The notes under the pieces: model-generated
What the model saw: only the letters and a program-made list of their open reading frames with translations
What the model was told of the DNA's origin: nothing
Database searches by the model: none
Assembly: GCA_045805065.1 (NCBI GenBank)
Contig: JBJMMA010000051.1
Location: forward strand, 1 to 28,462
Length of the DNA stretch: 28,462 bases
Direction of reading: 5' to 3'
Source: Bdellovibrionia bacterium
Lineage (GTDB): Bacteria; Bdellovibrionota; UBA1018
Translations under genes and position numbers: made by a program
In this document: positions 6,422-28,236 of the stretch, one piece after another
How positions within the stretch are numbered: the stretch's first letter is position 1
How the letters are laid out: the number at the start of each line of letters is the position of its first letter

Positions 6422-6813
6422 TATCCTTTAGAGTGACTCGACTGATTCACCTGTTTGACCGCTTCCTTCCATCCTGAAAGGAGCGTCTCCATCAGCTTCT
6501 GCACGGTCTCGAGATGTTGCTTGTTATTCTCAAGGTTGGCCTTCACCAACGTCTCCGTCATAAAATTATAGAGCCGTTCTAAGTTCTGAGCAATATCGCC
6601 GCCCACTTCAAAATCTAAAGTGTTGGCGAGCTCGTTGATAATGTCATGAGCCTTGCCAATCGCCATTCCTTTGGCGGGAATATCCTTGCGATCGATCGCG
6701 TCCGCCGCTTTTTTGACGTTCGTGATCGCAGCCTCGTACAGCATAATGAGGATTTGGCCGCGGTTAGCGGTTTTGACTGCCATTTGCTTGTATTGATTTG
6801 CGCCGTAGTTCAT
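6421..6813 (-). CDS. fliS: Flagellar export chaperone FliS
   Basis: YKQMAVKTA...LIMLYEAAI...KAHDIINELANTLDFEVGGDIAQNLERLYNFM...GWKEA is the classic FliS pattern. Follows fliD. Confidence 0.95.
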   Translation of the reverse strand: MNYGANQYKQMAVKTANRGQILIMLYEAAITNVKKAADAIDRKDIPAKGMAIGKAHDIINELANTLDFEVGGDIAQNLERLYNFMTETLVKANLENNKQHLETVQKLMETLLSGWKEAVKQVNQSSHSKG

Positions 6814-6841
6814 GACTTAAGGTCCCTTGCTGGTTAGTCTG

Positions 6842-8248
6842 TTATCCGCCTAATAACGATTGAACGAGATTACCGCCACCGCCCCCACCCGGGAGGGTTG
6901 CGCTCAAGTATTGTTGCTGTCTTTGCATGGCACCCAGCGAAGCCTCAAGACGTGAGAACTGCTCGGTCAGCGATTGCTGACGACGCTCCAGGTTTCGCTG
7001 TTTCATATCGATCTGGTCATCAATGCCCTTGATGCGAGACTTGAGAGAGTTCTCGCGTTGAGCAAGCATTCCGTTCCCGCTTTGCGTGTAGCCGGCGAGA
7101 AGGGATTTCATCTGATAGCCCAGGCCGAAAGAACCTGTGAAAATCTCGGAAAGGCCTTCAAAGTCCTTTTCCATGAACTTCTGGAACTTATCTTCCTTGA
7201 AGGTGAGGGCGCCTGATTTGTCGAACTCAATGCCAAGGTCGTGCATGAAGTAGATCTTGAAGTTCTCGTCGTCTGGCTTACCAACGGCGAAGCCTTCATG
7301 CATCAAGTTGCGAAGACGATATTCGATCGTCTGAAGCCCGCTATCACCTGCGAAAGTGGTGCTGGTATCCGAGTCCTTATCGATCTTGTTCTGATCGTTG
7401 ATGAACTTCAAAATCACGTTCACCTGTTCGACGAAGTTCTTCACCTTGCCGGAGATCTTTTGGAAGTCCTCGGTGATCGTCATGGTGAAGGGCTGATCAG
7501 GCTTGGCTTGCTTGAGATGCAGGTTCACGCCGGGCAGAAAGTCCTGAATGTCGTTGCTGTCCTGCTCGATCGGAAATCCATCCACTTTCAATGAAGCGTT
7601 TTTCGCGTCACGCGTGTCGTCCAGGAAGAAATCTTCTTCCCCATCCAGAAAGTAAAAGTCAGGGAACTTGACGTTATTAGCCTGGCCTTCCTTTTTGGCA
7701 GTCATGATGAGTTTCCAGGGCTTGTCTTCGTTGGAGGCGTCCTTTACCACGGCCGCGCGAACAGGGAAGTCCGCTTGCTCATTGATGATGCGCGCGATGC
7801 CACGAAGGCTGGATGCATCTTCCTCGACGTATACTTCTTTTGTATCGCCATCCGGCATGTCGAGAGTGATGAAACCCATTCCCATGATGGGCTTGTCTGG
7901 ATTTTCAAATGCGTTGGAAATGACCGAAGTCCGGGCAGCAAGTTCATTGACGCTGATTTCGTAGGTACCTGGGCTTGCGCGGTCTTTATCGACCGTAACG
8001 TCCACTTGCGGAGCCCCGTCACCGAGATTGACTTTAAGTTCACGCAAGCGCTTGAAAGCGGAGATCTCATCGACGGCTTTTTCAAGGCCACCGAACTTGG
8101 AGCGGAATTCATTGAAGAGTTTTAGGCGCGTGTTCTCCTTGCCCTTGCGAGCTTCGAGCTTTTTGATTGGCTCGCCTTCGGCCTCGACGATTGTCTTGAC
8201 CGCCTGTTTGAACATGCCCCCGCCAACGGGGTCAAAACGCAGACCCAA
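6842..8248 (-). CDS. fliD: Flagellar filament capping protein FliD (468 aa)
   Basis: FliD N-terminus (IVEAEGEPIKKLE, PGTYEISVNELA), NASLKVDG..I...SN.I.D.LPGV.L.L, and C-terminal LTEQFSRLEASLGAMQRQQQYL. AGGAGG RBS, TTG start. Confidence 0.92.
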   Translation of the reverse strand: MGLRFDPVGGGMFKQAVKTIVEAEGEPIKKLEARKGKENTRLKLFNEFRSKFGGLEKAVDEISAFKRLRELKVNLGDGAPQVDVTVDKDRASPGTYEISVNELAARTSVISNAFENPDKPIMGMGFITLDMPDGDTKEVYVEEDASSLRGIARIINEQADFPVRAAVVKDASNEDKPWKLIMTAKKEGQANNVKFPDFYFLDGEEDFFLDDTRDAKNASLKVDGFPIEQDSNDIQDFLPGVNLHLKQAKPDQPFTMTITEDFQKISGKVKNFVEQVNVILKFINDQNKIDKDSDTSTTFAGDSGLQTIEYRLRNLMHEGFAVGKPDDENFKIYFMHDLGIEFDKSGALTFKEDKFQKFMEKDFEGLSEIFTGSFGLGYQMKSLLAGYTQSGNGMLAQRENSLKSRIKGIDDQIDMKQRNLERRQQSLTEQFSRLEASLGAMQRQQQYLSATLPGGGGGGNLVQSLLGG

Positions 8249-13066: not shown

Positions 13067-14227
13067 TTAGTCGAAAAGGTTTTTCACCTTTTCAAAGAAG
13101 CTATGATGCATCGGATGGGCGCCATCGGCTCCGCTGTCCTCAAACTGCTTTAAAAGGTCCTTCTGTGCGCTGTTGAGTTTGGTAGGAACCTCAACAATTA
13201 CGCGGACAAGCTGGTCGCCGCGGCCGTAAGAACCGAGCTTCGACAGGCCCTTGTTCTTAAGACGGAAGGACTTATGAGACTGGGTTCCGGCAGGAACTTT
13301 GAGCTTCACCTTGCCTTCGATCGTTGGAACTTCGATTTCGGCACCCAACGCGGCCTGAGTGAAGGTGATCGGCACTTCGCAGATCACGTCAAATTCATCC
13401 CGGGTAAAGAACTCGTGAGGAAGGATATTGATGACGACGTAGAGATCGCCAGGCATTGCGCCACGCTCGCCCGCTTCGCCTTCACCGGTCAGCTTCAATC
13501 GTTGACCCGTATCCACCCCAGCAGGGATCTTTACGGCAATCTGACTGCGCTTTTGGATCTGTCCCGAGCCCCGGCAATCCGAGCATGGGTTTGGAATCGT
13601 TTGTCCTGCGCCATTACATGCAGGGCATGGGCGCGAGATCGCAAAGAAGCCTTGTTGGTATTGGACTTCGCCGCGGCCACCGCATTGGCGGCAACTTTCT
13701 GGCTGCGTGCCAGGCTTTGCGCCTGAGCCTTCGCAGGTTTCGCAAGCGACATGGCGGGGAACAGTGATGACTTTCTCCGTACCAAAAGCCGCTTCTTCAA
13801 AAGTAATATCGATGTTGGTTCTCAGGTCAGCGCCCGGGCGTCCTCCGCGACGGCGACCGCCGCGTCCACGAGCTCCTGCAGCACCCCCGGCCGCGCCAAA
13901 GAGGTCACCAAAGATATCACCGAAGATATCGTTGATGTTGGCGCCGCCAAATCCTTGTTCAAATCCACCGAAACCGCCAAATCCGCCACCCGCTCCGCCT
14001 GCGTTTGCGGCGTGTCCGAACTGGTCGTACATTTGGCGCTTTTGAGCGTCTGAGAGAACTTCGTAAGCTTCTGAGACCTCTTTGAACTTTTCCTCAGCTA
14101 CTTTATCGCCCGGGTTTTTGTCCGGATGAAACTGCACAGCAAGCTTACGGTAAGCCTTCTTGATCTCTTCGGTTTGGGCGCCGCGGGCCACGCCTAGAAC
14201 TTCGTAGTAATCTCTCTTAGTCGCCAT
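13067..14227 (-). CDS. dnaJ: Chaperone DnaJ
   Basis: J domain with HPD, G/F-rich linker, four CxxCxGxG repeats. Confidence 0.98.
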
Positions 14228-14275
14228 GGATTCTCTTTTTCGTAAACTTAGGCCTCTTCGAGGCCAGGCACTTTA

Positions 14276-14330
14276 GATCGCAACAAGCCCCTCAGCGCTG
14301 GTTAGAGCAGTGAGGGGCTTGTTAACGATC
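14276..14330. terminator. Stem-loop between dnaK and dnaJ (terminator/attenuator or mRNA stabiliser)
   Basis: AACAAGCCCCTCA (14282-14294) pairs perfectly with TGAGGGGCTTGTT (14311-14323). Confidence 0.7.
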
Positions 14331-14354
14331 GATCAATCTTAGAATGGGAAGAGA

Positions 14355-16298
14355 TTAGACTTCTTTGAAGTCCGCATCAATCACATCATCAGATTTTTTA
14401 TCGCCGCCGGCTTGTGCGCCTTGAGCACCAGCGGTGTGGGCTTCAGGACCGCCGTTTCCAGTACCAGGTTGAGCGCCTGCAGCGCCGGCGCCTGCCGTGC
14501 GGTACATTTGCTCAGCCATCTTGTTCGAAGCAGCCGTGAGTTGCTCGGTTGCCTTCTGGAGTTCAGCCACGTCTTTGCTTTCGAGATGCTTGCGAGCTTC
14601 AACGAGAGCTTCTTCGACGTTCTTCTTGGTGTCGGCTTCGATCTTCTCGCCGTTTTCCTTGAGGGTCTTTTCGATCGTGTAGATCAAGCCGTCCAGGGTG
14701 TTGCGAGCATTGACGAGCTCTTTGCGCTTTTCGTCTTCTTCGCGATGAGCTTCGGCTTCCTTCTGCATGCGCTTGATCTCTTCTTCGGAGAGACCGCTCG
14801 ATGCCGTGATGCGGATCGATTGTTCTTTTCCGGTTCCGAGGTCCTTAGCGCCGACGTGAACGATGCCGTTTGCGTCGATGTCAAAGGTGACTTCGACTTG
14901 AGGCACGCCGCGTGGAGCAGGTGGGATGCCGACGAGGTCAAAGCGTCCGAGAGACTTGTTGTACTCAGCGAACTCGCGCTCGCCTTGGAGTACGTGAATC
15001 GTCACAGCGCTTTGGTTGTCAGCAGCCGTCGAGAAGGTTTGTGATTTCTTGGTAGGAATCGTGGTGTTCTTCTCGATGAGCTTGGTGAACACGCCGCCCA
15101 GGGTTTCGATACCGAGAGAGAGTGGGGTGACGTCGAGGAGCAACACGTCCTTCACGTCGCCCTTGAGGACGCCGCCTTGGATTGCTGCACCGACTGCGAC
15201 CACTTCGTCTGGGTTCACGCCGCGGTGTGGTTCTTTACCGAAGATTTCCTTCACCTTCTGCTGAACGCGAGGCATACGGGTCATACCGCCGACGAGAATG
15301 ACCTCGTCGATCTTGTCACGGGTGACGCCAGCGTCCTTCATGCAGGTTTCAGATGGGCCGACCATCTTTTCGATGAGGTCAGCAACCAGAGCTTCAAGTT
15401 TTGCGCGGGAAAGCTTGAGGTTCAAGTGCTTAGGACCCGAAGCGTCTGCCGTGATGAACGGAAGATTGATGTCGGTTTCCATGGAGCTCGAGAGCTCATG
15501 CTTTGCTTTTTCAGCGGCTTCTTTCAAGCGTTGGAGAGCCATCTTGTCCTTGCGGAGGTCGATGCTGCTTTCCTTTTTGAACTCATCAGCGATCCAGTCG
15601 ATGATGCGTTGGTCGAAGTTACCGCCGCCCAGGAAAGTGTCGCCGTTGGTTGCCTTCACTTCGAAGACGCCATCGCCGAGCTCAAGGATCGAGATATCGA
15701 ACGTACCGCCGCCCAAGTCGAAGACTGCAACCGTGTGGTTCTTGCCTTGCTTGTCGAGGCCGTAAGCGAGGGCTGCAGACGTTGGTTCGTTGATGATGCG
15801 CTTGACTTCGAGACCTGCGATGCGGCCAGCGTCTTTCGTTGCTTGGCGTTGAGCATCGTTGAAGTAAGCGGGAACCGTCACGACAGCTTCGGTGACAGGT
15901 TCGCCCAGATAGTCTTCAGCGGTCTTCTTCATCTTCTGAAGAACGAGCGCGGAGATTTCTTGTGGAGAATATTCGCGGTCATCGACCTTCACCCAAGCAT
16001 CACCGTTCTTAGCTTCGATGATCTTGAATGGGGCGACCTTGATGAATTCTTGAACTTCGCGGGAGTTGAACTTGCGTCCAATCAAACGCTTGGCTTCGTG
16101 AATCGTCTTTTCTGGATTGGTGATGGCTTGGCGCTTTGCAGCTTGGCCAACCAGCTTTTCTCCAGATGGGCTGAAGCCCACGACCGAAGGAGTCGTATTC
16201 GCGCCTTCAGCATTTGGGATTACCTTCGGCTCGCCGCCTTCAAGAACGGAGACGCAGGAGTTCGTTGTGCCCAAGTCAATTCCAATGATTTTACCCAT
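14355..16298 (-). CDS. dnaK: Chaperone DnaK (Hsp70)
   Basis: [25 protein letters not shown] and the C-terminal DADFKEV. Confidence 0.99.
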
Positions 16299-16350
16299 AT
16301 AGTTGCCTTTCTTTACTTAAAAATTGGTCTGAAAATCGTTTTGTCAAATA

Positions 16351-16935
16351 TCAGCTAGCAGAAATTCCGCTGCTCACCATCACGCGCGCAGGACGCAAGA
16401 GGCGGCCATGAATCGTGTAACCTTTAAGCTGCTCCGAAGTCACGGTTCCAGCAGGCTGGTTCGATGGCTCTTGTCCCATACCTTCCATGAGGTTCGGGTC
16501 GAAAGCTTTTCCAACCGTTGGAACTTCTTCAACGCCGTTGCGTTGCAAGGTTTGCTTGAATTGTTGAATGACCATCTGAAGGCCGATCACGAGATTCTTG
16601 TCGGTGCCTTCAGGAGTGTGGGCCATGGCGCGCTCCAAGTTGTCGAGAACTTGAAGAAGATCGCGGCCGACGTTTTCCCAGCCAAATTTGCGTGCATCTT
16701 GAAGCTCTTTGAACGAACGCTTTTTGTAATTTTCAAACTCAGCGTAGAGATAAAGATACTTTGCGTCTTTCTCTTTTACCTGAGCTTCAAGCTCTTGGGT
16801 GCGCTGGTCAGCCTGGCTGTTACTATGACCGTTTGTGCCACCGTTGGCTTGGTTTTGTTGGGAGCCGCCGTTTTCAAATGGTTCGGCCGCGCGTTCGGCG
16901 GATCGCTCCGCAGATTCATGTTCGTTGGGTTCCAT
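16351..16935 (-). CDS. grpE: Nucleotide exchange factor GrpE
   Basis: AEFENYKKR, LDNLERA, FDPN and KGYTIHGRLLRPARVMV. Lies upstream of dnaK. Confidence 0.97.
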   Translation of the reverse strand: MEPNEHESAERSAERAAEPFENGGSQQNQANGGTNGHSNSQADQRTQELEAQVKEKDAKYLYLYAEFENYKKRSFKELQDARKFGWENVGRDLLQVLDNLERAMAHTPEGTDKNLVIGLQMVIQQFKQTLQRNGVEEVPTVGKAFDPNLMEGMGQEPSNQPAGTVTSEQLKGYTIHGRLLRPARVMVSSGISAS

Positions 16936-17096: not shown

Positions 17097-18203
17097 TTAA
17101 GCAAGGGATGTAACGACTTGATCTGAAAGGGAAAAGCCGCGGGCTGTAAGCCTGAAGTAATTCACTTTATTTGGATGGATTTCTAATAGGCCTGCTGCTT
17201 CGAGAGCCCGAGCCTTGGCCTTACGCGTCGGGGTGTTCAGCCAATCCGCTGGAAAACCATCGGATAGCCTAAGCGCCAGCATCCAGGATTCGAGATGCTT
17301 TTGCTCTTCGGTGAGTTCTTCGGTCCATTCTACTACGCTCTCGTTTTGCGCCAGGCTACGGGCGTACTTATGAAGAGAAGAGAAGTTCTTCCAACGTTTG
17401 CTCGTTTGAGAGTTAAAAGAGTGAGCCGATGGTCCCAAGCCCAGGTAGGAATCACCCTTCCAATAGCGAAGATTATGCTGCGCCTGAAATCCAGGCTTTG
17501 CGAAATTGGAGATCTCGTAATGCTCAAAGCCCTTCTCCTGCATGAAACGATCGATGAAAAGAAGATGCTCCAGCTGCGTGTCTTCGTTCGGTAGATCCTT
17601 GTACATCGGATGATGCGGGGGGAGGGTCAGCAAGTAACAGCTCAGATGCTTGATCGGAAAAGAGGTGAGCTGGTTCATGGCTTCTTCGATATCTTTCAAG
17701 CCTTGATTGGGAACGCCGCAGAGAAGATCGACAGACACATTCTCAAATCCTGCGCCAAACACCGCATCCAGTGCGCGCAAGACCGCATCGCGCGAGTGAA
17801 CGCGCCCGAGGTTTTTCAGCAGATCCTCGCGCATCGCTTGAACGCCCATGCTCACGCGATTGAGTCCAAACTCGCGGTACTCTTTCATCTTCTCGCGCTC
17901 GATGGAGGAAGGATTGGCTTCCATCGTCCATTCGGTTTTCTCGGTGATGCGAGTATGTTTCCAGAGTGGCTCAAGCGCGCGCTTCATTGAATCAGGCGGC
18001 GTCATGCTGGGTGTTCCGCCACCAAAGAAAATGGTTTCAAGCTCGGGCGAAAGCAGAGGTCCCATCTGCTCGCATTCTGCTTTCAGTGCTTTTTCAAAAG
18101 CGTCGGCATCGCCTGCTTTGGTTTTTTCACGACCCAGCGAATAGAAATCGCAGTAATGGCACTTGGCTTCGCAGAATGGAAAATGGACGTAGAGCGATTT
18201 CAT
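17097..18203 (-). CDS. hemW: Radical SAM heme chaperone HemW (HemN-like)
   Basis: SLYVHFPFCEAKCHYCDF (CxxxCxxC), GGGTPS, EANP, YEISNF, HNLRYW, YLGLGPSAHS. Typical position next to grpE. Confidence 0.92.
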   Translation of the reverse strand: MKSLYVHFPFCEAKCHYCDFYSLGREKTKAGDADAFEKALKAECEQMGPLLSPELETIFFGGGTPSMTPPDSMKRALEPLWKHTRITEKTEWTMEANPSSIEREKMKEYREFGLNRVSMGVQAMREDLLKNLGRVHSRDAVLRALDAVFGAGFENVSVDLLCGVPNQGLKDIEEAMNQLTSFPIKHLSCYLLTLPPHHPMYKDLPNEDTQLEHLLFIDRFMQEKGFEHYEISNFAKPGFQAQHNLRYWKGDSYLGLGPSAHSFNSQTSKRWKNFSSLHKYARSLAQNESVVEWTEELTEEQKHLESWMLALRLSDGFPADWLNTPTRKAKARALEAAGLLEIHPNKVNYFRLTARGFSLSDQVVTSLA

Positions 18204-18346: not shown

Positions 18347-19114
18347 TTAGTAGCTGCCTCCTGAAGTGGTGGTTCCTGCAGTTCCAGCGCTCTGCTGGAC
18401 GTTTGTGCCGCCAGCTACTCCAGCTGCTGAGCTAGGAGATGTGGCCGGAGAAATTCCACCTGCTACGCCTCCTCCAATAACTCCTCCTCCAATGATTCCT
18501 CCGCCTCCGATACCAGCTGATTGTGTCGGAGTTGCCGTTGGCGTAGCCGCGGTTCCAGCAGAGCTACCCACTTGCAGCGCGCCTGACATGCTGGCTGCTC
18601 CGTGAATTGCGCAGTGGTAGGCGATGATTCCCGAGACGCTTCCATCGAAGGTTCTGGTGTAGCTTTGTCCAGGCTGCAACGTGCCCGAGTCAAAGCTGCC
18701 ATCATCTGCGGTCACCGTATGTGGAGCGTTATCATTATTCACCCAGGTGACGGTCGTTCCCGCAGGAATGACAAGCGGGTTAACTCCGTAAGCGGCTGGG
18801 CCCATTCCAATAGAACCTTGTGGGATCGCTACCGTCACGCATTGTGGAACGGTTCCAGGTGATGCCGTGGACGTTGGTGTAGCTCCAGGTGAAGCGGTTG
18901 CTTCAGGCGACGCTGTTGCGCCAGGTGAGGCCGTCGCACCCGGAGACGCGGTTGCGCCAGGCGAACTCGACGTTAATGGGCAGGGATAAAGGACGCCAGG
19001 ACTTGCTGAAGCCCCTGGATTAGATGTGCCACCATTTTGTCCGTAAACTGCAATTGCGCCAAAGACGCTTAAGCTTGCGACTCCGGCTGCAAACAGCCCG
19101 AAAGCTTTTTTCAT
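18347..19114 (-). CDS. Exported cupredoxin (plastocyanin/azurin-like) protein with Ser/Thr/Pro/Gly-rich flanks, paralog A
   Basis: Signal peptide. GTTVTWVNNDNAPHTVT...FDSG.L.PG...YHCAIHGAASMSG supplies His, Cys, His and Met type-1 copper ligands. ATASPG repeats. Confidence 0.88.
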   Translation of the reverse strand: MKKAFGLFAAGVASLSVFGAIAVYGQNGGTSNPGASASPGVLYPCPLTSSSPGATASPGATASPGATASPEATASPGATPTSTASPGTVPQCVTVAIPQGSIGMGPAAYGVNPLVIPAGTTVTWVNNDNAPHTVTADDGSFDSGTLQPGQSYTRTFDGSVSGIIAYHCAIHGAASMSGALQVGSSAGTAATPTATPTQSAGIGGGGIIGGGVIGGGVAGGISPATSPSSAAGVAGGTNVQQSAGTAGTTTSGGSY

Positions 19115-19378: not shown

Positions 19379-19999
19379 TTACCGGGTGTTGCTGGTGGTA
19401 TAACTATAAACTCCTCCACCCGTGCTTACTGGCACGGTACCACCGGCGATTCCTGCAGATTGAGAAGGTGAGGCCGAAGGCGAAGCACTCACTCCGGGCG
19501 ATGCTCCAGCGGCACCACCGACTTGCAGCGCGCCTGACATGCTGGCTGCTCCATGGATTGTGCAATGGTAAGGGATATTTCCTGAGACGCTTCCATCGAA
19601 AGTTCTCGTGTAGCTTTGTCCCGGCTGGAGCGTGCCTGAGTCAAAGCTTCCGTCATCTGCGGTCACCGTATGTGGAGCGTTGTCATTGTTCACCCAGGTG
19701 ACGGTCGTTCCCGCAGGAATGACAAGCGGGTTAACTCCGTAAGCAGCTGGGCCCATCCCAATTGCGCCTTGTGGGATCGCAACAGTCACGCATTGTGGTG
19801 TAGTGCCCGGAGATGCAGTCGCTCCGGGTGAAGCGGTCGCACCAGGCGAGCTTGTTGTGGCTGGGCAGGGATAAAGGACACCAGGACTTGCTGAAGCCCC
19901 AGGGTTAGATGAGCCTCCTCCTTGTCCGTAAACTGCGATTGCCCCGAAAATACTAAGACTTGTGACTCCGGCTGCGAACAGCCCGAAAGCTTTTTTCAT
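19379..19999 (-). CDS. Exported cupredoxin protein, paralog B (206 aa)
   Basis: Near-identical core to paralog A (YHCTIHGAASMSG). Start placed at ATG 19999 (MKKAFGLF) from the GGAGA RBS and alignment with the paralog. Confidence 0.88.
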   Translation of the reverse strand: MKKAFGLFAAGVTSLSIFGAIAVYGQGGGSSNPGASASPGVLYPCPATTSSPGATASPGATASPGTTPQCVTVAIPQGAIGMGPAAYGVNPLVIPAGTTVTWVNNDNAPHTVTADDGSFDSGTLQPGQSYTRTFDGSVSGNIPYHCTIHGAASMSGALQVGGAAGASPGVSASPSASPSQSAGIAGGTVPVSTGGGVYSYTTSNTR

Positions 20000-20075
20000 G
20001 GGTTCTCTCCTTCTCCATTGTGAAGAGTCAGAATTGGCTCGCTTGTACAAAGAAATCGACGATTTGAATGGGGGA

Positions 20076-20091
20076 TGCATCGAGGATTCCA
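20076..20091 (-). promoter_or_regulatory. Putative sigma54 promoter of cupredoxin B
   Basis: TGGAATCCTCGATGCA (GG-N10-GC), 77 nt from the ATG, the same as in paralog A. Confidence 0.7.
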
Positions 20092-20161
20092 TGGCGGGAA
20101 GAGTTAAGCTGACTTTTCGAAGCCGCTTCTTTTAAAAGTGATTCAGGAAGCTTAATTTCAG

Positions 20162-22438
20162 CTACCGAAGAAGCGTCTTTAATCTGGCTATGAGAGATGG
20201 AGCGCAATTGGCGCGGAGAGGAGATTGCAGTTTCATTCGTTCTTCGCGGACGATGTTGACCAAATTATTTACGAGCTTGTTAAACTGCTTTTCCTCTTTG
20301 ATTTTTTCAAGCCTGTCTTTGGCAGGTTTCATATCCTCCGGATCGGATAATACCATCGCAAGCAGCGCATCGCCCATTAGGAACGCAAGCTGGCTTTGGA
20401 ACATAAGTTGAGGCTCATTCCGAGTGACGAGAGCCACTGTTCCATGCAACGCGACCATGGCTAGCCGTGCACGAAGCGTTTTAAGTCGGAGCGCAATCTG
20501 TTCTTTGGTTAAGGCGGGGTCATTCATTACTTTCGATAAAAATGGTTCGATGGATTGGACTCGATCGGAACCTAAGTGAAGGAGACCTTCGGCGATATTC
20601 TTTAAGGCGAGTTCGCGCTGATGCTCAGAAAGAAGCTTGAGCGGTTGCACTGCGTCCGCGAATCTTTTCTGAAACGCAGTGACCTCAGCACGGTCCGGTT
20701 TTGGAGCTTCCGAAAGCAATTGAAGATCAATCATTAAAGAGTACAACTTCTCCTTCAATCCATCAGGAATGTAATGCGCATCTTTAAATGAATTTTCGAG
20801 TACGGAAAAAGGGATAAAATTATCAATGGTTGGGACATTGTTCCAAATTTCTCGAATTTCTTCTGGCGCGGAAACATTGAGTCGTACAGCTTGATTGAGC
20901 TGCTTCAGATCCTCAAACGTGGCTGCTTTTCTTGCGAGAGTAATGAGCTCGTTTAACGGGATCAGGTTTCGAGTGTGGCCTTTGGGATTAGATAAAACGG
21001 CGCTGTTTTTGACGACGTAAGCATGGGATACATAAGGGTAACATAGAATATCAGCATCAAAAGCATGAGCGAATTCCGAGTAGGGATCCTTGCCTGTTTC
21101 AAGCTTTTCGTAAAAACCTTTGAGTTGATGATTACTGCGACTTAGAAACTCTTTAAAAACGCGCGCCCCTTCTCCGCGGGTAACGTCGATGACTTTTGCC
21201 GTTGGTTTGACTTCAAACTCAACGACCCGGTCCACTGTTCCAGCAGATCTGATGGCAAGTGCCAAATTGTCGCGCCTGACTGAGTAAAGTCCTGAGCCTG
21301 CCGATCCAGCTTCTGACGGGAAAACTCCGCTGAATAGATTCGATCTGAAAAACTCTTCTGTTCTTGTCCCGTGATAGAGTTTTCCATCGGGAAATTCTTG
21401 CGAAGTGGGAGAATAAAGTTTTTCAGGATCGGTTTGATAATGCTTCATGTTCTCCGCGACAGTGGCAGGATCGCGATAGGTCGCAAAGAGGTATTGATTG
21501 ATGGGCGCGGCATCTTCGTATCGGTTAAGCACATTGTTCATGTCAAAGTGCTTGTACAGAAGGTAAGTGGCCGTGGGATTGATGTAGGAACGAAAACTTT
21601 TCGCTACAGTATCGTTAAAGTATTTCTTGAATTGTGGGTTGGCAAAATAAGGAGCTAGCTCATCCTTAGCCTGCGCGATGATCTTCTTCGCAGCCGTTTC
21701 GGACTCATGATCGAATGTGAAAGCATTTTTTGGATCAGGTCGATTCTGGCCGTAGCTGTTGTAATAATCGATTGAGAGAGTTCTTAAATATCTCAGCGCC
21801 AGCAGAATTTGATGATTTGCTTTTTGTTTTGCGTAATGGGTCGTTTCGAATACTTCTTTCGGAGTTACATGCAACGTGGGGCGACCATGAAAGATTTCGT
21901 CCATTCCGTCACCGAATGTCCTGTTTTGAATGATACCCTTTGATCCAATCCGAATTTTTTCAACGGGCAGGTAACCTTGATCGATCTCGCTCTTGCCCAT
22001 CGCGCTGGATGGATTAAATCGCTCGCTTTTGATGTAGTCAATCTTGGTTAGACCATAGATGTCTTTGTTGAGTGCAAGCTCTCGGTCACTCACGATGTCC
22101 ACATCCGAGTCCATGCTCAGAAATTCTTTCGGCTGAATGATCGCTCGGGAACGAAGCTCTTCGATCTTTTTCTTGGCCTGCTCGGGCGTATCGACGCCGA
22201 TGAACTGACGTTTTACCCAGTAGATGAAGTCGCGCGATGTGCCACCAAAGAATTCGGCCTGAGGATTTTCTTTCCAAGCGTCTTTGAAGAGAGACACCTT
22301 TTGACTCAGCTCGCCTGTCAAGGCGGAGAACTCCTCCTTCGACATGAGCTTGTCGGGAGATTGAGCAAAGGCGGATAGGGTAGTGAAAAGCCAAAGAAGA
22401 AGGGCTGATGCTCTAACTGTTCGTGCAATTTTCAGCAT
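20162..22438 (-). CDS. Exported protein: class II nucleotidyltransferase-like domain plus ADP-ribosyltransferase-like domain (758 aa)
   Basis: Sec signal (...TTLSAFA-QS) and GGAGGA RBS. EFFGGTSRD, DSDVDI and LLALRYLR are NTase-like. KLYHGT, AGSGLY, VVEFEV and AYVVKN resemble the PARP/ART core. Confidence 0.65.
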   Translation of the reverse strand: MLKIARTVRASALLLWLFTTLSAFAQSPDKLMSKEEFSALTGELSQKVSLFKDAWKENPQAEFFGGTSRDFIYWVKRQFIGVDTPEQAKKKIEELRSRAIIQPKEFLSMDSDVDIVSDRELALNKDIYGLTKIDYIKSERFNPSSAMGKSEIDQGYLPVEKIRIGSKGIIQNRTFGDGMDEIFHGRPTLHVTPKEVFETTHYAKQKANHQILLALRYLRTLSIDYYNSYGQNRPDPKNAFTFDHESETAAKKIIAQAKDELAPYFANPQFKKYFNDTVAKSFRSYINPTATYLLYKHFDMNNVLNRYEDAAPINQYLFATYRDPATVAENMKHYQTDPEKLYSPTSQEFPDGKLYHGTRTEEFFRSNLFSGVFPSEAGSAGSGLYSVRRDNLALAIRSAGTVDRVVEFEVKPTAKVIDVTRGEGARVFKEFLSRSNHQLKGFYEKLETGKDPYSEFAHAFDADILCYPYVSHAYVVKNSAVLSNPKGHTRNLIPLNELITLARKAATFEDLKQLNQAVRLNVSAPEEIREIWNNVPTIDNFIPFSVLENSFKDAHYIPDGLKEKLYSLMIDLQLLSEAPKPDRAEVTAFQKRFADAVQPLKLLSEHQRELALKNIAEGLLHLGSDRVQSIEPFLSKVMNDPALTKEQIALRLKTLRARLAMVALHGTVALVTRNEPQLMFQSQLAFLMGDALLAMVLSDPEDMKPAKDRLEKIKEEKQFNKLVNNLVNIVREERMKLQSPLRANCAPSLIARLKTLLR

Positions 22439-22469: not shown

Positions 22470-25400
22470 CTAGAATAACGACTCTTCGATATGGCGCTTA
22501 ATGCACTTGAGTTCCATTCTTGGATGAGCTGTGCCTTCCTTCACTTTGGACACCACGGCTGATTTGATTTCATCAAGCTCAGCGGTCGCGGCAGGATTGC
22601 CTTTGGCGCGAGTCATCGACTCGTCAAACGTTCTTGCAAGAAGACCGCTGGAGAGTTTCTTGGCTTGCTCAAAGTGAGGAGTGCCTTTCAATGCATCGAG
22701 CTCTTTTGCGATGGAGGCAGAGAGAGTTTCCATAAAGAGGCCATCTTTGCCTTTGTAGCCAAACTTATCGTAGTCGACCTTCTTGATCAAGGCGTCGAGG
22801 TCTTCCTTGGTCAGATAACGGTCCTTCATGACCTTATTGAAGACAGGCTCGAACTCTTTGGACTCGATGCCTTTATGGATCACTTCATCAGCCATGCTAT
22901 CCACGACTTTATCGATGATCTCGCTCGCGATCGCTTTCTCTTGAGCAGAGCTTCCTTCTCTCACGCCTGGGAACAGGCCGTTATTGATGAGCATGTTCTT
23001 CAATTTTTCAATTTTGCCTAAATCATCGGCTGCTTCTTTGCCTGCACCGCGAGCGCTACCGTCATTGCCACCGCCCGTGGCGTAGCTTCCGTGGTAGAAG
23101 ACTGCGCGATGGCCTGCGGAGAGCTCAACCATTCGCTTAAGAACACTCGAAAGGTTTTGCACATCGGCCACTTCTTGCGCCTTAGGACGGACATATCCTA
23201 AGTAACCTGGGCCTGGGATCAGGCTCACAAAGTCCGCGCCGTTCTGGCGATTGAGCATCGCATTGGTCATCCAGTGTCCGTAGACCTCGTGGACCGCGAC
23301 TTCATGCAGAAGCTCGGGCGTATACTTCATCTTCTCAACGGACTTGAGGTCATGAACGGAAGGAGTGCGGTTGATGCCATCCGCTGATGCATGCTTTTTG
23401 AATTCCCAGGTGCGTTTCTCGCCACCGCCGGGAAGTTTCTTGCCTTCAAGGATGACTTCCTCGCCATCGACGAACCATTGAGGATGCTCGCCATCCGGGA
23501 TCTTCATCTCAATCTTTTGGATGCGATGGCCCTTGATGCGTTGAATATCCGCCATCATGGTTTTAAGCGGGCGGAACATCATGGCATTGAAGCCCTCATC
23601 CACCTCGCGCATTCCAAGCTTCACCGTACTCAGGCGATTAACAACGGACTCCGTGGCGTTTTCTGGGATGATGATTTCAAGATTTGGATTGTTAGCAGCT
23701 TTTCTGATCTCATCGATGGCTTTCTTGATCTTGATGCCGCCAACTCCCAGCGATACTTCGCGAGGCTGTGGGCCCATGACATAGATGTGACCCAAGCGCG
23801 CAATCTTTGGAGCATCAAGACCTTGTCTTTCAAGGTTCTGGACGATTTCAGAGCGAGTGAGTTTTTCGCGAATCTTCTTCACCAAAGATTCAGTTTCTGG
23901 ATTGTCATCCAGCCCTGAGAACATCTCTTGAAGACTGTTGCCGGTGATGCCCACGACAAAGCCGCGAGCATCCTCGTATTTTCCGTTAATCTTGAGTTTC
24001 TGCTCGTCCAAGAGCTCATAGAGCTCTTGAAGGACAGCGATTTTTCCGCCTTTTTGGCCTTCGACTGACGTGCCTGAGCTCTTACCGATTTCAGACATCA
24101 ATTCGTCAAAGAGAATGATCCCGCCTCCAGCGGACTTGCGGCTCTTGAACCAGCGCTCAAAGTCGGTTTCTTTGTTTGATCCGGAGATACCCGTTGGAGG
24201 GCGAAGATAGTCACTCAAATCCCATGGATGATCGACGCCAGTGATTTTGAACATGGCCTTCTCGTCACCATAGAGAACTTTTGCCATGGCTTTGAAGGTT
24301 TCAGTTTTCCCGTTGCCGGAAGTGCCTAAGAGAGTGAAGACTGCTTTGTCGTTCCAATCGACGGATTTGCTCTTCAGCACGCTTGCCATATCGGCCAACA
24401 CGTCCTGGTTACCTTTGACATGTTTGCTCATCTCTTCCTGGAAATTATCAATCCGCTTCATCGTTACAGGATTGCTGCCCCAAGGATTCTTCTCTTCGTT
24501 GATCAGCGCACCCAGTGCGAATTTCTCAGATTTTCCGTCTGAGCTGTCCACGATCAGATTTTGAGCGGGAAGTTGACGGCCATCATACTCAATATGTGTA
24601 TCTTCGATATGCGCTTTAAACGTTTTTCCGCGATCACCAAAGTAAGGGGTGAGCTTGCTGAAGATCTTTTCCTGGAGCTGTTCTTCAGCGTAGCTGTAGC
24701 CTTTTTCAAACTGGTAGTGATCAATGTTCAGTGCTTTGTTCACTGCCTCGGGCGAGATTTCAAAATTCACGCCGTAGTCGAGCTTGGCATCTTTGATGAA
24801 CTTCTTAGCTTTGCGTTGAGCGGCTTCCATGACTTCCTCTTTGTTCGGAGGAAGGATGTAAATGCCTTTGTAACGCCGTTTTTGCTTATTGGCTTCTTGA
24901 GCAATGGAGCTTGTGTCGCCGCCTGGATTGCTCTTTTCTACGATCTCGCCAACATAGCGATCAAAGAGAGCCGACATTTGATCAGGCTTGACGCGCTCGA
25001 CAGGCTTGCCATCGATCAGTATTGTTTCAGTGAGATTAGCTCGGCGAGTATTGTATTGCTCCCAAGTCATCTTGTTGGCAGCGTTGGTCGGGATCATCAA
25101 ATCTTGGCCGATATTGGTATTCTGCCAAATGACAAACTTACTCGCATCGTATTCTTTGCCAAGACCATCGGTAAACTTCTTGTCCGTGATCATATTGGTC
25201 AAAAGCTGGACCACATCGTGATGAAGGTAGTCAGCCTCCTCGATTTTGATCACGCCGCCTGCCGGGTGCTCTTGGATGAATTTCGTAAGAATGGATCTTT
25301 GTTGCTCAGAGCCTACGGTTCCGACAGGGGAACCAATCAGTTTATTGAGCTCAAGACCGCCGTTCTTAAATTCGGCGCCGTTGATGGTCAGCATCGCGTT

Positions 25401-27254
25401 GTTAAAGAAATGCTTAGCCACCGACTCGGCCCCATAGCTCTTACCGCCCCCTGGAGGGCCGAAGGCCACAACGGCTGTCATCTTGCCCTTATGAGATGAG
25501 CCGAAGTGATCTTTTAAGATCTGCTTCATCTCAGTCATTGCTCCGTCGTTTCCGCCGTAGTCTTCGCGGAAGTCGGTCCACTGCTTATTGAAGTTATCGT
25601 TAAACTTTGGATCGCCTGGGATCAGGGGAGTCTTGAGCTTAGACGCGATATATTCGCGGACATCATCCGCAGTGAGATTGAAGTCGCCCTTTCTTCCCTG
25701 AGTAGCAAGCGCGTTCAGTTTGCGAGAAAGCGCGCCCTCAAGGAGTTCCTTGGTTCCGGTTGGATTTCCGGCGTGAGGCTGCTCAGAAGCTGCAAAGCGG
25801 TAAGCATAGTCAAAGGCGTCATCATCAATGCTCGAGAAACTGGCGCCATTCTTTTTATGGGCTTTCTGCCAAAGCGGAACGTTGCTTTGCTTGATGAGCT
25901 TGATCGTATCGTCACGGCCAAACTCTGGAACGTGAATTTCAGAGAAGCGGCGGCTGAACGCGCTGTCTTTGAAGAAGTCACGCGCTTCGGCTGACGTGGT
26001 TGAAAAGATCATATTGACCTTAGGGTCATCTCCCAATCCATGTTGCATCTCAGTGAGATAGCCCTTCAAGGCATTGCGGGTCATCGCAGTGGAAATGTGA
26101 GCTTCGTCGACATAGAGAATCACACGACGGTCCAAGGCTTTGGAAAGTGCCTTCGCATTGGCAACGACGTTTTTTGGCGCACTTGGGTCCGAAGGATTGG
26201 TCACTGTCGTGATAGGAAGCTCGAGGATGATAGGAGGCTTCTCGTCATGAATCCCTTGCGTTCCTTGAACAAACTTATCCGATAGTAGTTTTAAGATAGT
26301 AGTTTTACCGACGCCAGCTTTCCCGGTTAAAAGAACGTGGCCTTTTTCGACGCGCGTGAGGGCATCGATCATTTCTTGGGATTCGACCTCGCGGCCAAAG
26401 TATTTGATGAAGCTCTTATTTGGATCGTTATGAGTAGTGACGGATTTGTCGTAATGATTGCTTTCAGCGGAGTTGACGAACTTCATCAAATCATTAGCGT
26501 CGTCGCCGCTGACTTTTCCGGCTTTCACCTGCTCATCCAAAAGCTCGCGAACGGTCTTGTGCTTTTCGGCTGCAATCTGTCCGGTCGCGGTCAGCGCAGG
26601 GGGCCTTGCCGTGAAGGCCGGGCCGGCTGGAGCGCGCAATGTATCAGTAGCAACAGCCGATTTGAGGCTGTCATCGATCAAGTTAAACTGGGGAGGAAAG
26701 CCCACCTTGGTTTTTGTGCTTGGATCAGTGTGGTCGTACTTTTGAACAAACTCAGCAAACTGCTGCTTGCCTTGAGTGTCCAGGAGTCCGCGGTTAAGAA
26801 TCTCGCGGATCTCATATAGGCCCGTATCGCCGGTGCGATTGGCGAGATACCAACCGGTGCCGTCTCCGCGATTCGTTGCTCCACGACCTTTGTAAAGAAG
26901 CTCGAGCGCCGTAAGAACGGTAAGTCTTGCTTCCTCGGGTCGGTTGAAGGCTTTGCCCTGGGCTGAGTGAAGAATTGTTTCGAGACGATCGATCGCGGAG
27001 GTGACTTCGTGTGGATGCTGGATTTTGGGTAGCGCGACCCCGAAGCTGTTTTGGGGGAGTGTCGCTCTCAACTCATCTGTGATCTTTTTGATCGCGTCGA
27101 CGAGCTTTTGATTCTCGGCATCCTCAGTCGCGCTGACCGGATTCATCGCTCTGGCTGGCGTGATCCACAGCGGATTGAGACCGAGTCCCAACGAACTAAT
27201 GATAAGTGCGAGTACTACACCTTGCTTCACCTGTTTTGCGACACGGACGCTCAT
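22470..27254 (-). CDS. Large signal-peptide-bearing protein with three Clp-like AAA+ modules and a C-terminal M41/FtsH-like peptidase domain (1594 aa)
   Basis: Walker A/B pairs GKAGVGKT/LYVDEAH, GPPGGGKS/IKIEEAD and GTSGNGKT/ILFDEL. C-terminal VAVHEVYGH...VSLIP...LGYV...LSAGHRA...TGGGND parallels the FtsH protease domain. N-terminal hydrophobic stretch ends PARA-MNP. Confidence 0.75.
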   Translation of the reverse strand: MSVRVAKQVKQGVVLALIISSLGLGLNPLWITPARAMNPVSATEDAENQKLVDAIKKITDELRATLPQNSFGVALPKIQHPHEVTSAIDRLETILHSAQGKAFNRPEEARLTVLTALELLYKGRGATNRGDGTGWYLANRTGDTGLYEIREILNRGLLDTQGKQQFAEFVQKYDHTDPSTKTKVGFPPQFNLIDDSLKSAVATDTLRAPAGPAFTARPPALTATGQIAAEKHKTVRELLDEQVKAGKVSGDDANDLMKFVNSAESNHYDKSVTTHNDPNKSFIKYFGREVESQEMIDALTRVEKGHVLLTGKAGVGKTTILKLLSDKFVQGTQGIHDEKPPIILELPITTVTNPSDPSAPKNVVANAKALSKALDRRVILYVDEAHISTAMTRNALKGYLTEMQHGLGDDPKVNMIFSTTSAEARDFFKDSAFSRRFSEIHVPEFGRDDTIKLIKQSNVPLWQKAHKKNGASFSSIDDDAFDYAYRFAASEQPHAGNPTGTKELLEGALSRKLNALATQGRKGDFNLTADDVREYIASKLKTPLIPGDPKFNDNFNKQWTDFREDYGGNDGAMTEMKQILKDHFGSSHKGKMTAVVAFGPPGGGKSYGAESVAKHFFNNAMLTINGAEFKNGGLELNKLIGSPVGTVGSEQQRSILTKFIQEHPAGGVIKIEEADYLHHDVVQLLTNMITDKKFTDGLGKEYDASKFVIWQNTNIGQDLMIPTNAANKMTWEQYNTRRANLTETILIDGKPVERVKPDQMSALFDRYVGEIVEKSNPGGDTSSIAQEANKQKRRYKGIYILPPNKEEVMEAAQRKAKKFIKDAKLDYGVNFEISPEAVNKALNIDHYQFEKGYSYAEEQLQEKIFSKLTPYFGDRGKTFKAHIEDTHIEYDGRQLPAQNLIVDSSDGKSEKFALGALINEEKNPWGSNPVTMKRIDNFQEEMSKHVKGNQDVLADMASVLKSKSVDWNDKAVFTLLGTSGNGKTETFKAMAKVLYGDEKAMFKITGVDHPWDLSDYLRPPTGISGSNKETDFERWFKSRKSAGGGIILFDELMSEIGKSSGTSVEGQKGGKIAVLQELYELLDEQKLKINGKYEDARGFVVGITGNSLQEMFSGLDDNPETESLVKKIREKLTRSEIVQNLERQGLDAPKIARLGHIYVMGPQPREVSLGVGGIKIKKAIDEIRKAANNPNLEIIIPENATESVVNRLSTVKLGMREVDEGFNAMMFRPLKTMMADIQRIKGHRIQKIEMKIPDGEHPQWFVDGEEVILEGKKLPGGGEKRTWEFKKHASADGINRTPSVHDLKSVEKMKYTPELLHEVAVHEVYGHWMTNAMLNRQNGADFVSLIPGPGYLGYVRPKAQEVADVQNLSSVLKRMVELSAGHRAVFYHGSYATGGGNDGSARGAGKEAADDLGKIEKLKNMLINNGLFPGVREGSSAQEKAIASEIIDKVVDSMADEVIHKGIESKEFEPVFNKVMKDRYLTKEDLDALIKKVDYDKFGYKGKDGLFMETLSASIAKELDALKGTPHFEQAKKLSSGLLARTFDESMTRAKGNPAATAELDEIKSAVVSKVKEGTAHPRMELKCIKRHIEESLF

Positions 27255-27396: not shown

Positions 27397-28236
27397 GTGC
27401 GCGTGCCAATGTGCCGTCTTCTATTTGGAATTGCTCTGGTTTTGGCAGGCGGAATGGTCCAATCCGCTTTGGCCGCGGATCCGTGCGTTAAGGACTCGCT
27501 TCGTGCTCGGTTCAGTTCTTTCTTTTCCAAGCCTGCCGCTGAGTCGCATGCCCAACCCGCTGTTCAGAAGGAAGCTCTCAAGCCTATGATGACCCATGCT
27601 GCTGTTGCTTCTGCGGAAAAGCTGACGATCGATAGTGAAGTCAAAGCCGCAGGAATGATGCCGCGAGGATCCGCGGTGATGACGAGCGCTGGGTTGCTTG
27701 AAGCGCAGGGCATTCGCAATATCATCCATGCTGCAAGCGGAAGCATGACGAAGTCAGGACCAAAGTTTGGGCCTAACCTCGATGGCGTCGTCAACTCGGT
27801 TCACAATTCGCTTGAGCTGGCTCGTCGCAATGGACATCAACGCGTTGCTGTCCCTTTCATTGGTGGCAAGATTTTTATCGATAGCATTGGAATCCCGGCT
27901 CAAGAACTCGCTAATCAGATTGTCGATGCGGCCTTGAAGTCTCGTGGAAACCTTGAGCTACGCTTTGTCACTTTTGGAGCTGAGGATACGACGCTTTTTC
28001 AAAATGCGCTGAAGCGCCATGCAAGCGAAGTGTCGCCTCAGCTTGCTCAGGTTACTCCTGGATCGATTACTGATTTTAATGTCCATGGCGCGAGCGCAAT
28101 CATCAATGCTGCCAATATGGAAATTCAGTTTGGCGGTGGCTTGTCAGGTGCAATTGGGCGAGCAACAGGTCGCGCGGATCAGATCAACGGAGAAGCGCAA
28201 AAAGCGATTCGCGAGTTTTATCAAACTCATCAGTAA
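27397..28236 (+). CDS. Exported, circularly permuted macrodomain protein (279 aa)
   Basis: Signal peptide (...VQSALA-ADP). Macro motifs GSAVMTSAGLL, IIHAA, VAVPFIGG, RFVTF, GSITD and AIINAANMEIQFGGGLSGAI. Confidence 0.85.
   Translation: MRVPMCRLLFGIALVLAGGMVQSALAADPCVKDSLRARFSSFFSKPAAESHAQPAVQKEALKPMMTHAAVASAEKLTIDSEVKAAGMMPRGSAVMTSAGLLEAQGIRNIIHAASGSMTKSGPKFGPNLDGVVNSVHNSLELARRNGHQRVAVPFIGGKIFIDSIGIPAQELANQIVDAALKSRGNLELRFVTFGAEDTTLFQNALKRHASEVSPQLAQVTPGSITDFNVHGASAIINAANMEIQFGGGLSGAIGRATGRADQINGEAQKAIREFYQTHQ

Follow-up and report, generated by a model that had tools for sequence, protein, structure and literature searches.

The window analysed here, a stretch of 28,462 nucleotides from a Bdellovibrionia bacterium (assembly GCA_045805065.1, contig JBJMMA010000051.1), carries on its reverse strand, at 20162..22438, a gene consisting of a single open reading frame (ORF) for a 758-residue protein (P0001) that is akin to a class II nucleotidyltransferase (NTase) joined to an ADP-ribosyltransferase (ART) of the H-Y type, and that is a member of neither curated family. 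Behind the two modules the protein continues into a helical region and ends in a cysteine-containing tag. The two-domain architecture, a class II NTase-like module followed by an ART fold, appears highly probable to us, and we propose, with a probability of about 0.5, that the protein is an exported two-module enzyme of nucleotide and ADP-ribose transfer. A fuller mechanism, in which both heads are active and the product can be reversed by a macro-domain protein, is put forward more tentatively. The exported NTase-ART fusion is in no curated family that we searched, and we found no paper on it.

The NTase-like head and neck (residues ~35-322, 21473..22336, reverse strand) were delimited with AlphaFold2 (AF2), VIA, Foldseek and conservation. 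An AF2 model of residues 27-505, built from 88 sequences, has a mean pLDDT of 94.1 and a pTM of 0.89. Its top match by VIA-align, a search independent of Foldseek, is 3h37_A (Z 10.7, root-mean-square deviation (rmsd) 3.6 Å, 187 aligned residues, model residues 9-279), and ranks 1-7 are all class II NTases, namely CCA-adding enzymes, A-adding enzymes or poly(A) polymerases (3h37, 4wby, 1miv, 3aql, 3wfo, 1ou5 and 9kma; Z 10.7-8.4, rmsd 3.6-5.0 Å, 186-225 aligned), with ART-fold proteins from rank 8 downward, over model residues ~276-467. The top five rows span ~5-296 of the model and break off at ~246-296 of the matched chains, that is, over head and neck; 1ou5_A and 9kma_A extend over stretches of the ART module (model to 465 and 454, chain to 303 and 378, respectively). 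Foldseek searches of the PDB with this model gave nothing at E<=1e-3; class II CCA-adding enzymes lead the list (probability 0.99-1.00, E 2.6e-3 to 1e-2), 5hc9_A (probability 1.00) among them, followed by PARP catalytic domains and MbcT. The class II NTase fold that the first-pass annotation had predicted from motifs is thus recovered, and in the model the ART-like domain comes directly after the neck, where class II enzymes carry a body domain.

All the motifs quoted in that annotation lie where it had placed them, within the one ORF, and the translation puts those of the NTase module at residues 65-70 (GGTSRD, nt ~22229-22246), 110-114 (DSDVD, nt ~22097-22111) and 213-219 (LALRYLR, nt ~21782-21802). 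Across the family they read GG[TS]xRD (65-70), S-D-x-D (111-114), D134, QG..EK (154-161), NHP..LLALRYLR (208-219) and FRSYxNPTA (282-290). In a 149-sequence family alignment, the members of which are 29-50% identical to the query and from which the conservation counts given here are taken, the loop is conserved at G66 (142/143), R69 (142/143) and D70 (141/142), the carboxylate region at S111 (142/145), D112 (145/145), D114 (143/145) and D134 (D or E in 142/144), and the neck at N208 (146/148), H209 (148/148), R216 (148/148) and R219 (148/149), with Q154 (144/145), E160 (144/145) and K161 (141/145) in between. D112 and D114 sit on one strand of the AF2 model and D134 on the next long strand; the GG[ST]xRD loop and these three residues would form the usual pol-beta set, the role of D134 being assigned by its strand position. 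Between the GGxxRD loop and the DxD motif stands an insert of about 41 residues that includes a helix; in class II NTases this spacing is about a dozen residues.

The likeness to class II NTases (PF01743; 3h37, 4wby, 1miv, 3aql) therefore lies in the fold of head and neck (Z 10.7-9.2), the GGxxRD loop, the DxD motif with a third carboxylate, an LRxLR-like neck helix and a weak collinear profile alignment. This last was made with hhalign against 25 PolyA_pol (PF01743)-family enzymes of the same phylum, taken as open frames; it is collinear, not significant (E 0.018, probability 2.6%), and was used solely for placing motifs. It pairs GGTSRD with GGxVRD, GDGxxEI with GGxxDL and LRYLR with LRxLRA, and also aligns the FRSYTNPTAA helix, and it leaves RRDFTINA unmatched. 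Class II NTases recognise the ribose through RRD (motif B) and select the base through EDxxR (motif D). The first-pass annotation had noted that the RRDFT motif is not recognisable, which holds in hhalign and in the family alignment alike, but it had given that motif the role of nucleotide selection; base selection belongs to EDxxR, and this too is altered, as both alignments lack a recognisable EDxxR and show N-H-P-x-L, with the invariant N208-H209 in place of E-D, at the expected position. Because RRD is unmatched and N-H-P-x-L replaces EDxxR, the elements that would read ribose and base appear unlike those of CCA and poly(A) enzymes. The protein also differs from class II NTases in its ~41-residue insert, in its signal peptide, in the ART domain that follows the neck, and in the lack of a match to the PF01743 hidden Markov model, which found neither the 758-residue protein at E<=1 nor any of 30 long homologues at E<=1e-3. 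The window's genome has a separate, ordinary PolyA_pol-family (PF01743) gene.

The ART-fold domain (residues ~326-493, 20960..21463, reverse strand) was delimited with AF2, VIA, a Foldseek search of BFVD, and conservation. Modelled in isolation (residues 302-500), it has a pLDDT of 92.3 and a pTM of 0.88, and 71 of 48,161 chains match it in VIA at Z>=2. Among the best 50 of these 71 chains, 32 are by title PARP, diphtheria-toxin- or exotoxin-A-type, ParT, RES or Tpt1 proteins, and the remaining ones of the 50 we take to be mostly ART-fold toxins as well. The best match is a cyanophage A4 pre-ejectosome protein (9k3a_B, Z 8.0, a score of a size that VIA flags as common where a model has no clear match; 22% identity across 135 residues), followed by diphtheria toxin and its homologues (Z 7.9-7.4), NatT (7.3), MbcT (7.2) and AcrIF11 (6.9), and further down by PARP2, PARP3, PARP4 and PARP1 (Z 6.6-5.6), ParT, RhsP2, exotoxin A/cholix and Tpt1 (4.6); the pseudo-PARP domains of TASOR and PARP13 are also among the matches. 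Foldseek retrieved 9k3a_B from the PDB (E 4.4e-4) and 20 matches at E<=1e-3 from BFVD (best 1.5e-6), whose names include 'ART-PolyVal-like', 'PolyVal ADP-ribosyltransferase', 'PARP catalytic domain' and a MuF-like fusion. The nearest named clusters in the ESM Atlas, taken as leads only, are ART-PolyVal (0.91; family on 20% of members), AcrIF11, RES and PARP.

In the AF2 model H356 of the YHGT motif (LYHGT, residues 354-358, nt ~21365-21379) lies at the end of strand 1, and Y385 of GxxGxGxY (GSGLY, residues 381-385) in strand 2. We assign the domain to the ART fold because the match list is near-exclusively ART and because YHGT and GxGxY fall on strands 1 and 2; the split beta-sheet domain expected from the motifs is there, so that AF2, Foldseek and VIA found both the NTase and the ART fold, whose absence from a model would have refuted the first-pass reading. 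The residues concerned are H356 (147/147), S375 (145/147), G383 (145/145), Y385 (145/145) and D418 (141/145), with D463 (141/143), A473 (138/141), K477 (133/142) and N478 (138/142) at later positions. As the counts are near-invariant in both modules, both putative active sites appear to be under strong constraint, and the motifs of the family, to judge from the aligned sequences, are not due to chance.

To locate the catalytic acid we took the point at which each VIA range stops on the C-terminal side and counted backwards to the catalytic residue of the reference, which is coarser than a residue-level superposition. For all eight references (PARP1, PARP2, PARP3, PARP10, tankyrase, diphtheria toxin, exotoxin A and cholix) the count lands on domain-model residue 171-172, that is, residue 472/473 of the protein. 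Position 473 is Ala in 138/141 members, and at position 472 the residue varies (E 31, D 21, R 16, K 15 and H 10 of 131). The catalytic Glu of those ARTs stands in the neighbourhood x-E-Y-I-x-x-x, which the local pattern x-A-[YF]-V-V-K-N (AYVVKN at residues 473-478 in the query) mirrors. The earlier suggestion that Ala has taken the place of the catalytic Glu is thus upheld, for a position that comes from alignment ranges and motif pattern. The equivalent of A473 in remote relatives is His in P0156, a protein of the same genome, and in a 993-residue protein of genome G090, and Leu in a 285-residue ART-only ORF of genome G041. D463, which is D in 141/143 (with one E and one Q), was considered as the catalytic acid of an H-Y-D site resembling that of ART-PolyVal, and is less likely because the VIA range ends give 472/473 and D463 is at the far end of the preceding hairpin strand; each of the three remote branches retains D463 and N478. 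As read from the alignment, the site of the family would be H-Y-hydrophobic.

The ART superfamily comprises three clades, H-H-h, H-Y-[EDQ] and R-S-E, according to passages of a published account (PMC7955679). With H-Y-[EDQ] ARTs the domain shares the fold (Z 8.0 for 9k3a_B, 7.9-7.4 for diphtheria-type toxins and 6.6-5.0 for PARPs), YHGT on strand 1 and GxGxY on strand 2; it differs from them, ART-PolyVal (PF18760) included, in the Ala at the third catalytic position and in matching no Pfam ART model. The ARTs of phage polyvalent proteins are described, in the passages retrieved, as H-Y-D effectors injected into hosts (PMC5512222). The fold matches to RES and other NAD+-targeting toxins (MbcT, NatT, Xre-RES) and to ParT are nearly as strong (Z 7.3-6.2), but the RES-type toxins are small, cytoplasmic and paired with an antitoxin, whereas the present protein is large and exported and has no conserved partner gene. 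Tpt1/KptA, of the H-H-h clade, offers a parallel in HGT on strand 1, in a hydrophobic third position and in the RNA-end context that the fused tRNA-NTase-type module suggests; its match is weaker, however (Z 4.6-3.8), strand 2 carries Tyr rather than His, and no N-terminal RNA-binding lobe was identified in the present protein. Mono-ART PARPs are alike in having an H-Y-hydrophobic site.

It could be that only the NTase is catalytic, and that the ART-like module is a pseudo-enzyme which replaces the tRNA-binding body and tail of CCA enzymes as a nucleotide-, NAD- or substrate-binding module. The acidic residue is gone, being Ala in 138/141 members and His or Leu in the three remote relatives; the module stands in the place of the body domain, since the top five class II matches end at the neck, and the pTM of 0.89 suggests that both modules pack as one unit. 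Against the presence of the pseudo-PARPs TASOR and PARP13 among the matches one has to set the invariance of the NAD-site His and Tyr (147/147 and 145/145) and the macro-domain link described below, which points to real ADP-ribose chemistry. Human PARPs with H-Y-I, H-Y-L or H-Y-Y sites are moreover listed as active mono-ARTs, and the third residue of the H-H-h clade is hydrophobic, in the passages of the same source (PMC7955679); we consider a pseudo-ART rather unlikely.

The two modules were never found apart among full-length family members and are predicted to pack together, and the base-templating motif of the NTase is replaced by the invariant N-H. One could accordingly imagine a composite site, in which NAD+ or ADP-ribose, bound in the ART pocket, would serve the NTase as donor or acceptor, for example for AMP transfer from NAD+ or for a nucleotidylated ADP-ribose product or signal. 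We know of no pol-beta NTase reaction of this type, and ART-only relatives exist, such as the 285-residue ORF of G041; the idea seems very improbable to us even though NAD+-dependent ligases, as described in passages of one paper, gained the use of NAD+ through an NAD+-binding domain fused to a nucleotidyltransferase (PMC9503650). The retrieved passages of PMC5512222 and PMC9503650 contain no class II NTase-ART fusion, and full-text literature searches returned no description of one.

Searches with the 758-residue protein found no known family. In Pfam the only match was to PF13562 in the C-terminal region (E 0.18), which was taken for noise (12.3 bits against a cut-off of 27); the NCBIfam scan gave no match, PHROGs none for the whole protein and one for the ART part alone (E 0.16), and phmmer nothing at E<=10 among PDB sequences. 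The family profile had five matches in the PDB, at E>=0.14, all within the low-complexity helical C-terminus. A 90%-clustered collection held 39 homologues besides the query; few are named, and those with source names are hypothetical proteins of Bdellovibrionota or 'Deltaproteobacteria' metagenome-assembled genomes (MAGs). An exhaustive search returned 224 cluster representatives at E<=1e-3, 166 of them at E<=1e-30. The matches nearly always span query residues ~10-535, and the total lengths of the homologues vary from 211 to 1850 residues, so the family can be described as a conserved N-terminal unit of ~500 residues with a hypervariable C-terminus. Thirty long homologues matched nothing in Pfam but a weak HEAT repeat in two and a sub-threshold DUF885 in one.

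The protein begins with a Sec-type signal peptide (residues 1-25, 22364..22438, reverse strand) that can be read directly from its N-terminus, MLKIARTVRASALLLWLFTTLSAFA followed by QS: basic residues (K3, R6 and R9), a hydrophobic core and an AxA motif (AFA, before Q). A Shine-Dalgarno sequence, GGAGGA, lies ~7 nt 5' of the ATG, and a crude test for a hydrophobic stretch picked out 107/153 family proteins, a set that includes several truncated ones. The first-pass call that the protein is secreted agrees with this, and by its N-terminal sequence the NTase-ART protein is predicted to be exported.

Of 121 genomes sampled evenly across the phylum, two contain full-length members: the window's genome (G000) has two copies, and seven are in a genome (G027) that is its kin at the level of the phylum only; two more of the sampled genomes have weak ART-only matches. 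A species-level genome collection yielded 32 family loci, with at least nine in one MAG, and the labels of the loci are Bdellovibrionota, Bacteriovoracaceae, Pseudobdellovibrionaceae, Oligoflexia and 'Deltaproteobacteria'. So far the family has been found in Bdellovibrionota-type genomes, where it is patchy and multi-copy. One family member (locus L005, JBLHVN010000002.1) is on a 1.27-Mb contig labelled Sulfitobacter sp.; as the 17-kb locus has a GC content of 39%, the label or the binning is doubtful. A phage origin was considered and rejected, the scan of viral contigs having given 55 pattern matches and zero relatives.

This distribution bears on the possibility that the protein is no weapon at all and does housekeeping for its producer in the periplasm or at the surface, such as salvage of nucleotides or modification of the producer's envelope components. 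Such a role would fit a Sec signal without a recognised effector-delivery domain, and adjacent genes that are housekeeping and include no conserved immunity-like small gene. The periplasm, however, contains neither nucleoside triphosphate (NTP) nor NAD+, and occurrence in 2/121 genomes, multiple copies and hypervariable C-termini are the pattern of conflict proteins, and we regard a housekeeping role as scarcely probable.

A link to ADP-ribose is suggested by P0155 (279 residues, 27397..28236, forward strand), a secreted macro-domain protein with a signal peptide, the gene for which is 5 kb away and divergent from the NTase-ART gene and the gene upstream of it. The Pfam Macro match (PF01661, E 9e-10, 39 bits against a cut-off of 22) covers profile positions 34-107 only and is the sole macro match in the window's genome, and the NAAN..GGG segment, with its glycine-rich ADP-ribose loop, lies at the C-terminus. 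In a tandem homologue in G027 the profile segments come in the order 36-107, 1-23, 25-107, 1-32, an order that reveals a circular permutation of the macro domain. Homologues of P0155 are present in 2/121 sampled genomes, the two with full-length family members, and in 8/10 genomes reached via family loci (not found in G127 and G129; G121, among those 10, has the same coordinates as G027). In total, 9/11 family-bearing genomes have one, against 0/119 of the sampled genomes that lack full-length members. Three genomes have the permuted macro domain as the C-terminal part of a protein with an alpha/beta-hydrolase domain. This hydrolase shares 44-51% identity (E 3e-80 to 3e-92) with a gene that, in locus L012, overlaps the 3' end of the family gene. 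P0155 is thus a candidate ADP-ribose eraser or reader tied to the family.

The gene upstream of the NTase-ART gene, on the same strand and 31 nt from it, encodes P0002 (1594 residues, 22470..27254, reverse strand), an AAA+ protein by domain scans and a probable operon partner. A hydrophobic segment at its N-terminus is followed by three AAA+ modules (Walker A at ~308, ~597 and ~975) and, towards the C-terminus, by a HEVYGH (HExxH) region, and its best NCBIfam similarity is ClpV/ClpB-like and far below cut-offs; an exported or membrane-anchored Clp/FtsH-like hybrid of 1594 residues is of unusual size. A relative with a Peptidase_M41 match adjoins the family gene in L012, and the C-terminal region of P0002 is present in 2/121 sampled genomes, namely those that carry the family, and in 3/5 further family genomes. 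When five neighbours from the window were searched by tblastn against 35 loci (L001-L035), only the AAA+ relative in L012 was retrieved, and a Pfam scan of 80 neighbour ORFs of 28 loci returned mostly housekeeping genes. A toxin-antitoxin reading, or a conserved immunity gene, was dropped because only the AAA+/M41 protein and the alpha/beta hydrolase, both in L012, recurred near family genes.

Taken with these neighbours, the reading that we prefer, an exported enzyme of nucleotide and ADP-ribose transfer, can be spelled out as follows. After Sec export the protein would act beyond the cytoplasm of its producer, most likely on molecules of prey or competitors. The NTase, its base preference altered, would move a nucleoside monophosphate from an NTP to a hydroxyl, either that of an RNA 3' end or another one, and the ART module would bind NAD+ and then either mono-ADP-ribosylate an acidic or phosphate acceptor or position a nucleotide or substrate for the NTase. 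The ART chemistry would be of an ester type, reversible by macro domains, for which no catalytic Glu would be needed; targeting or anchoring would fall to the variable helical C-terminus and the Cys tag, and the secreted macro protein would remove or read the ADP-ribose mark. That the protein is likely to be active is suggested by the near-invariance of D112, D114 and D134 and of H356 and Y385 over ~145 divergent sequences, and by the recurrence of the two-module unit and its motifs in the remote paralogue P0156. Presence in 2/121 genomes, multiple copies and hypervariable C-termini point to a conflict type of evolution, and the ADP-ribose link is drawn from the sole macro gene 5 kb away, its co-occurrence with the family (9/11 versus 0/119) and the fusion to the hydrolase.

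Both halves come from superfamilies that bacteria and phages use as weapons, among them tRNA-tailing NTase toxins and ART toxins that modify protein, DNA or RNA. With an altered nucleotide-selection pocket and a Glu-less ART site, the predicted chemistry would be unlike both CCA addition and classical ADP-ribosylation. If the macro link is true, there would be a writer-eraser pair outside the cytoplasm of the predator, and with it a handle on how prey is disabled.

A number of points weigh against this reading. The sequence-profile link to CCA enzymes is insignificant by itself, the top ART score of Z 8.0 is one that VIA commonly gives to models without a clear match, and the catalytic-acid position was counted rather than superposed. 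No Glu, Asp or Gln of the kind that marks the H-Y-[EDQ] clade was found at the start of strand 5, where Ala stands in 138/141 members, and as the clade's catalytic residue is absent the ART module may be non-catalytic. An enzyme exported by Sec would need NTP and NAD+ on site, and for this it would have to reach the prey cytoplasm or leaked contents. The neighbourhood is not conserved in 28 loci, and the macro gene is adjacent in this window only. The two genomes share more than the family: the C-terminal region of P0002 and a 'dark' secreted family used as a control, found in 8/121 genomes including G000 and G027, occur in both, so the co-occurrence may mirror a shared accessory repertoire. 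Related genomes are moreover not independent in these counts, which are no proof of a specific partnership. Activity, substrate and localisation are predictions from sequence and structural models.

The variable helical region (residues 494-740, 20219..20959, reverse strand), delimited by alignment, lengths and composition, is poorly conserved and rich in Leu, Ala, Glu and Lys, and its length varies across the family. It is followed by the Cys tag (residues 741-758, 20165..20218, reverse strand), in which C745 sits 14 residues from the end of the protein (...NCAPSLIARLKTLLR). In the family survey a Cys 5-22 residues from the end was present in 125/153 proteins, and in 120/131 of those with at least 700 residues, while Cys overall makes up 0.29% of the residues. 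The tag also occurs in P0002 (...MELKCIKRHIEESLF) and in P0156 (...ADHCVIMYMKRLFGKQ), and the tail of ~10-15 residues after the tag Cys is amphipathic, unlike a membrane-spanning helix. A loose pattern (C, hydrophobic, three residues of any kind, hydrophobic; 9-17 residues from the end) matches 56/3249 ORFs of the genome; 25 of the 56 have at least 600 residues, and 22 of these 25 have a signal-peptide-like N-terminus. As a marker it is imperfect, since two of the 25 resemble membrane transporters. Twelve tagged proteins and P0156 matched nothing in Pfam at E<=1e-3, and in NCBIfam gave only two chance-level matches (16-18 bits against cut-offs of 180 and 282). From its sequence, the tag is possibly a sorting or anchoring signal, and through it the NTase-ART family exposes a feature common to many large uncharacterised secreted proteins of the same genome; a full-text literature search for a C-terminal cysteine sorting signal in Bdellovibrio returned nothing relevant by title or abstract. 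The 'dark' secreted proteins, of 800-1000 residues, end in ...F.RGE(S/T)...C....L..L and are present in at least seven copies in the window's genome (C247, C7, C62, C172 and C213; L064-L067 and L072) and in seven in G027.

The window's genome has three relevant genes, namely the present one, a paralogue on C60 and the remote relative P0156 on C38. The C60 paralogue (G000:C60:28177-33300; L036 10178-15301) is full-length, has 838 residues and lacks the Cys tag; a NIF-like phosphatase gene and a transglutaminase-elicitor-like gene come after it in the same orientation, and these genes may represent another set of exported enzymes. P0156 (G000:C38:643-5040, L037) has 1465 residues and aligns with the family profile in hhalign at a probability of 96% (E 4e-9, 412 columns) over both the NTase and the ART modules. 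Its motifs are GGVVRT, SDFD, HHGT and GRGVY, and after the NTase-ART unit it has at least four long near-identical internal repeats (...FLDGDKE.YF.EGTGLGARLIPLIE...).

A more far-reaching reading, which we regard as improbable, would make the family the writer of an unknown extracytoplasmic nucleotide/ADP-ribose modification system of predators. The NTase and Glu-less ART pockets would cooperate, for instance with the NTase tailing an RNA or protein end that is then ADP-ribosylated or linked to NAD, or with ADP-ribose being nucleotidylated. The secreted, permuted macro/alpha-beta-hydrolase proteins would be the eraser and the giant AAA+/metalloprotease a partner, and dozens of large 'dark' proteins would share, in the Cys tag, the mark of a new pathway of export or anchoring.

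Elsewhere in the window, two tandem paralogous secreted cupredoxins of the plastocyanin/azurin type are encoded at 18347-19114 and 19379-20092 (reverse strand), both with Ala/Ser/Pro/Gly/Thr-rich repeats on either side of the copper domain. Housekeeping genes on the same strand include fliS and fliD (6421-8248), grpE-dnaK-dnaJ (13067-16935) and a HemN/HemW-like radical SAM gene (17097-18203).

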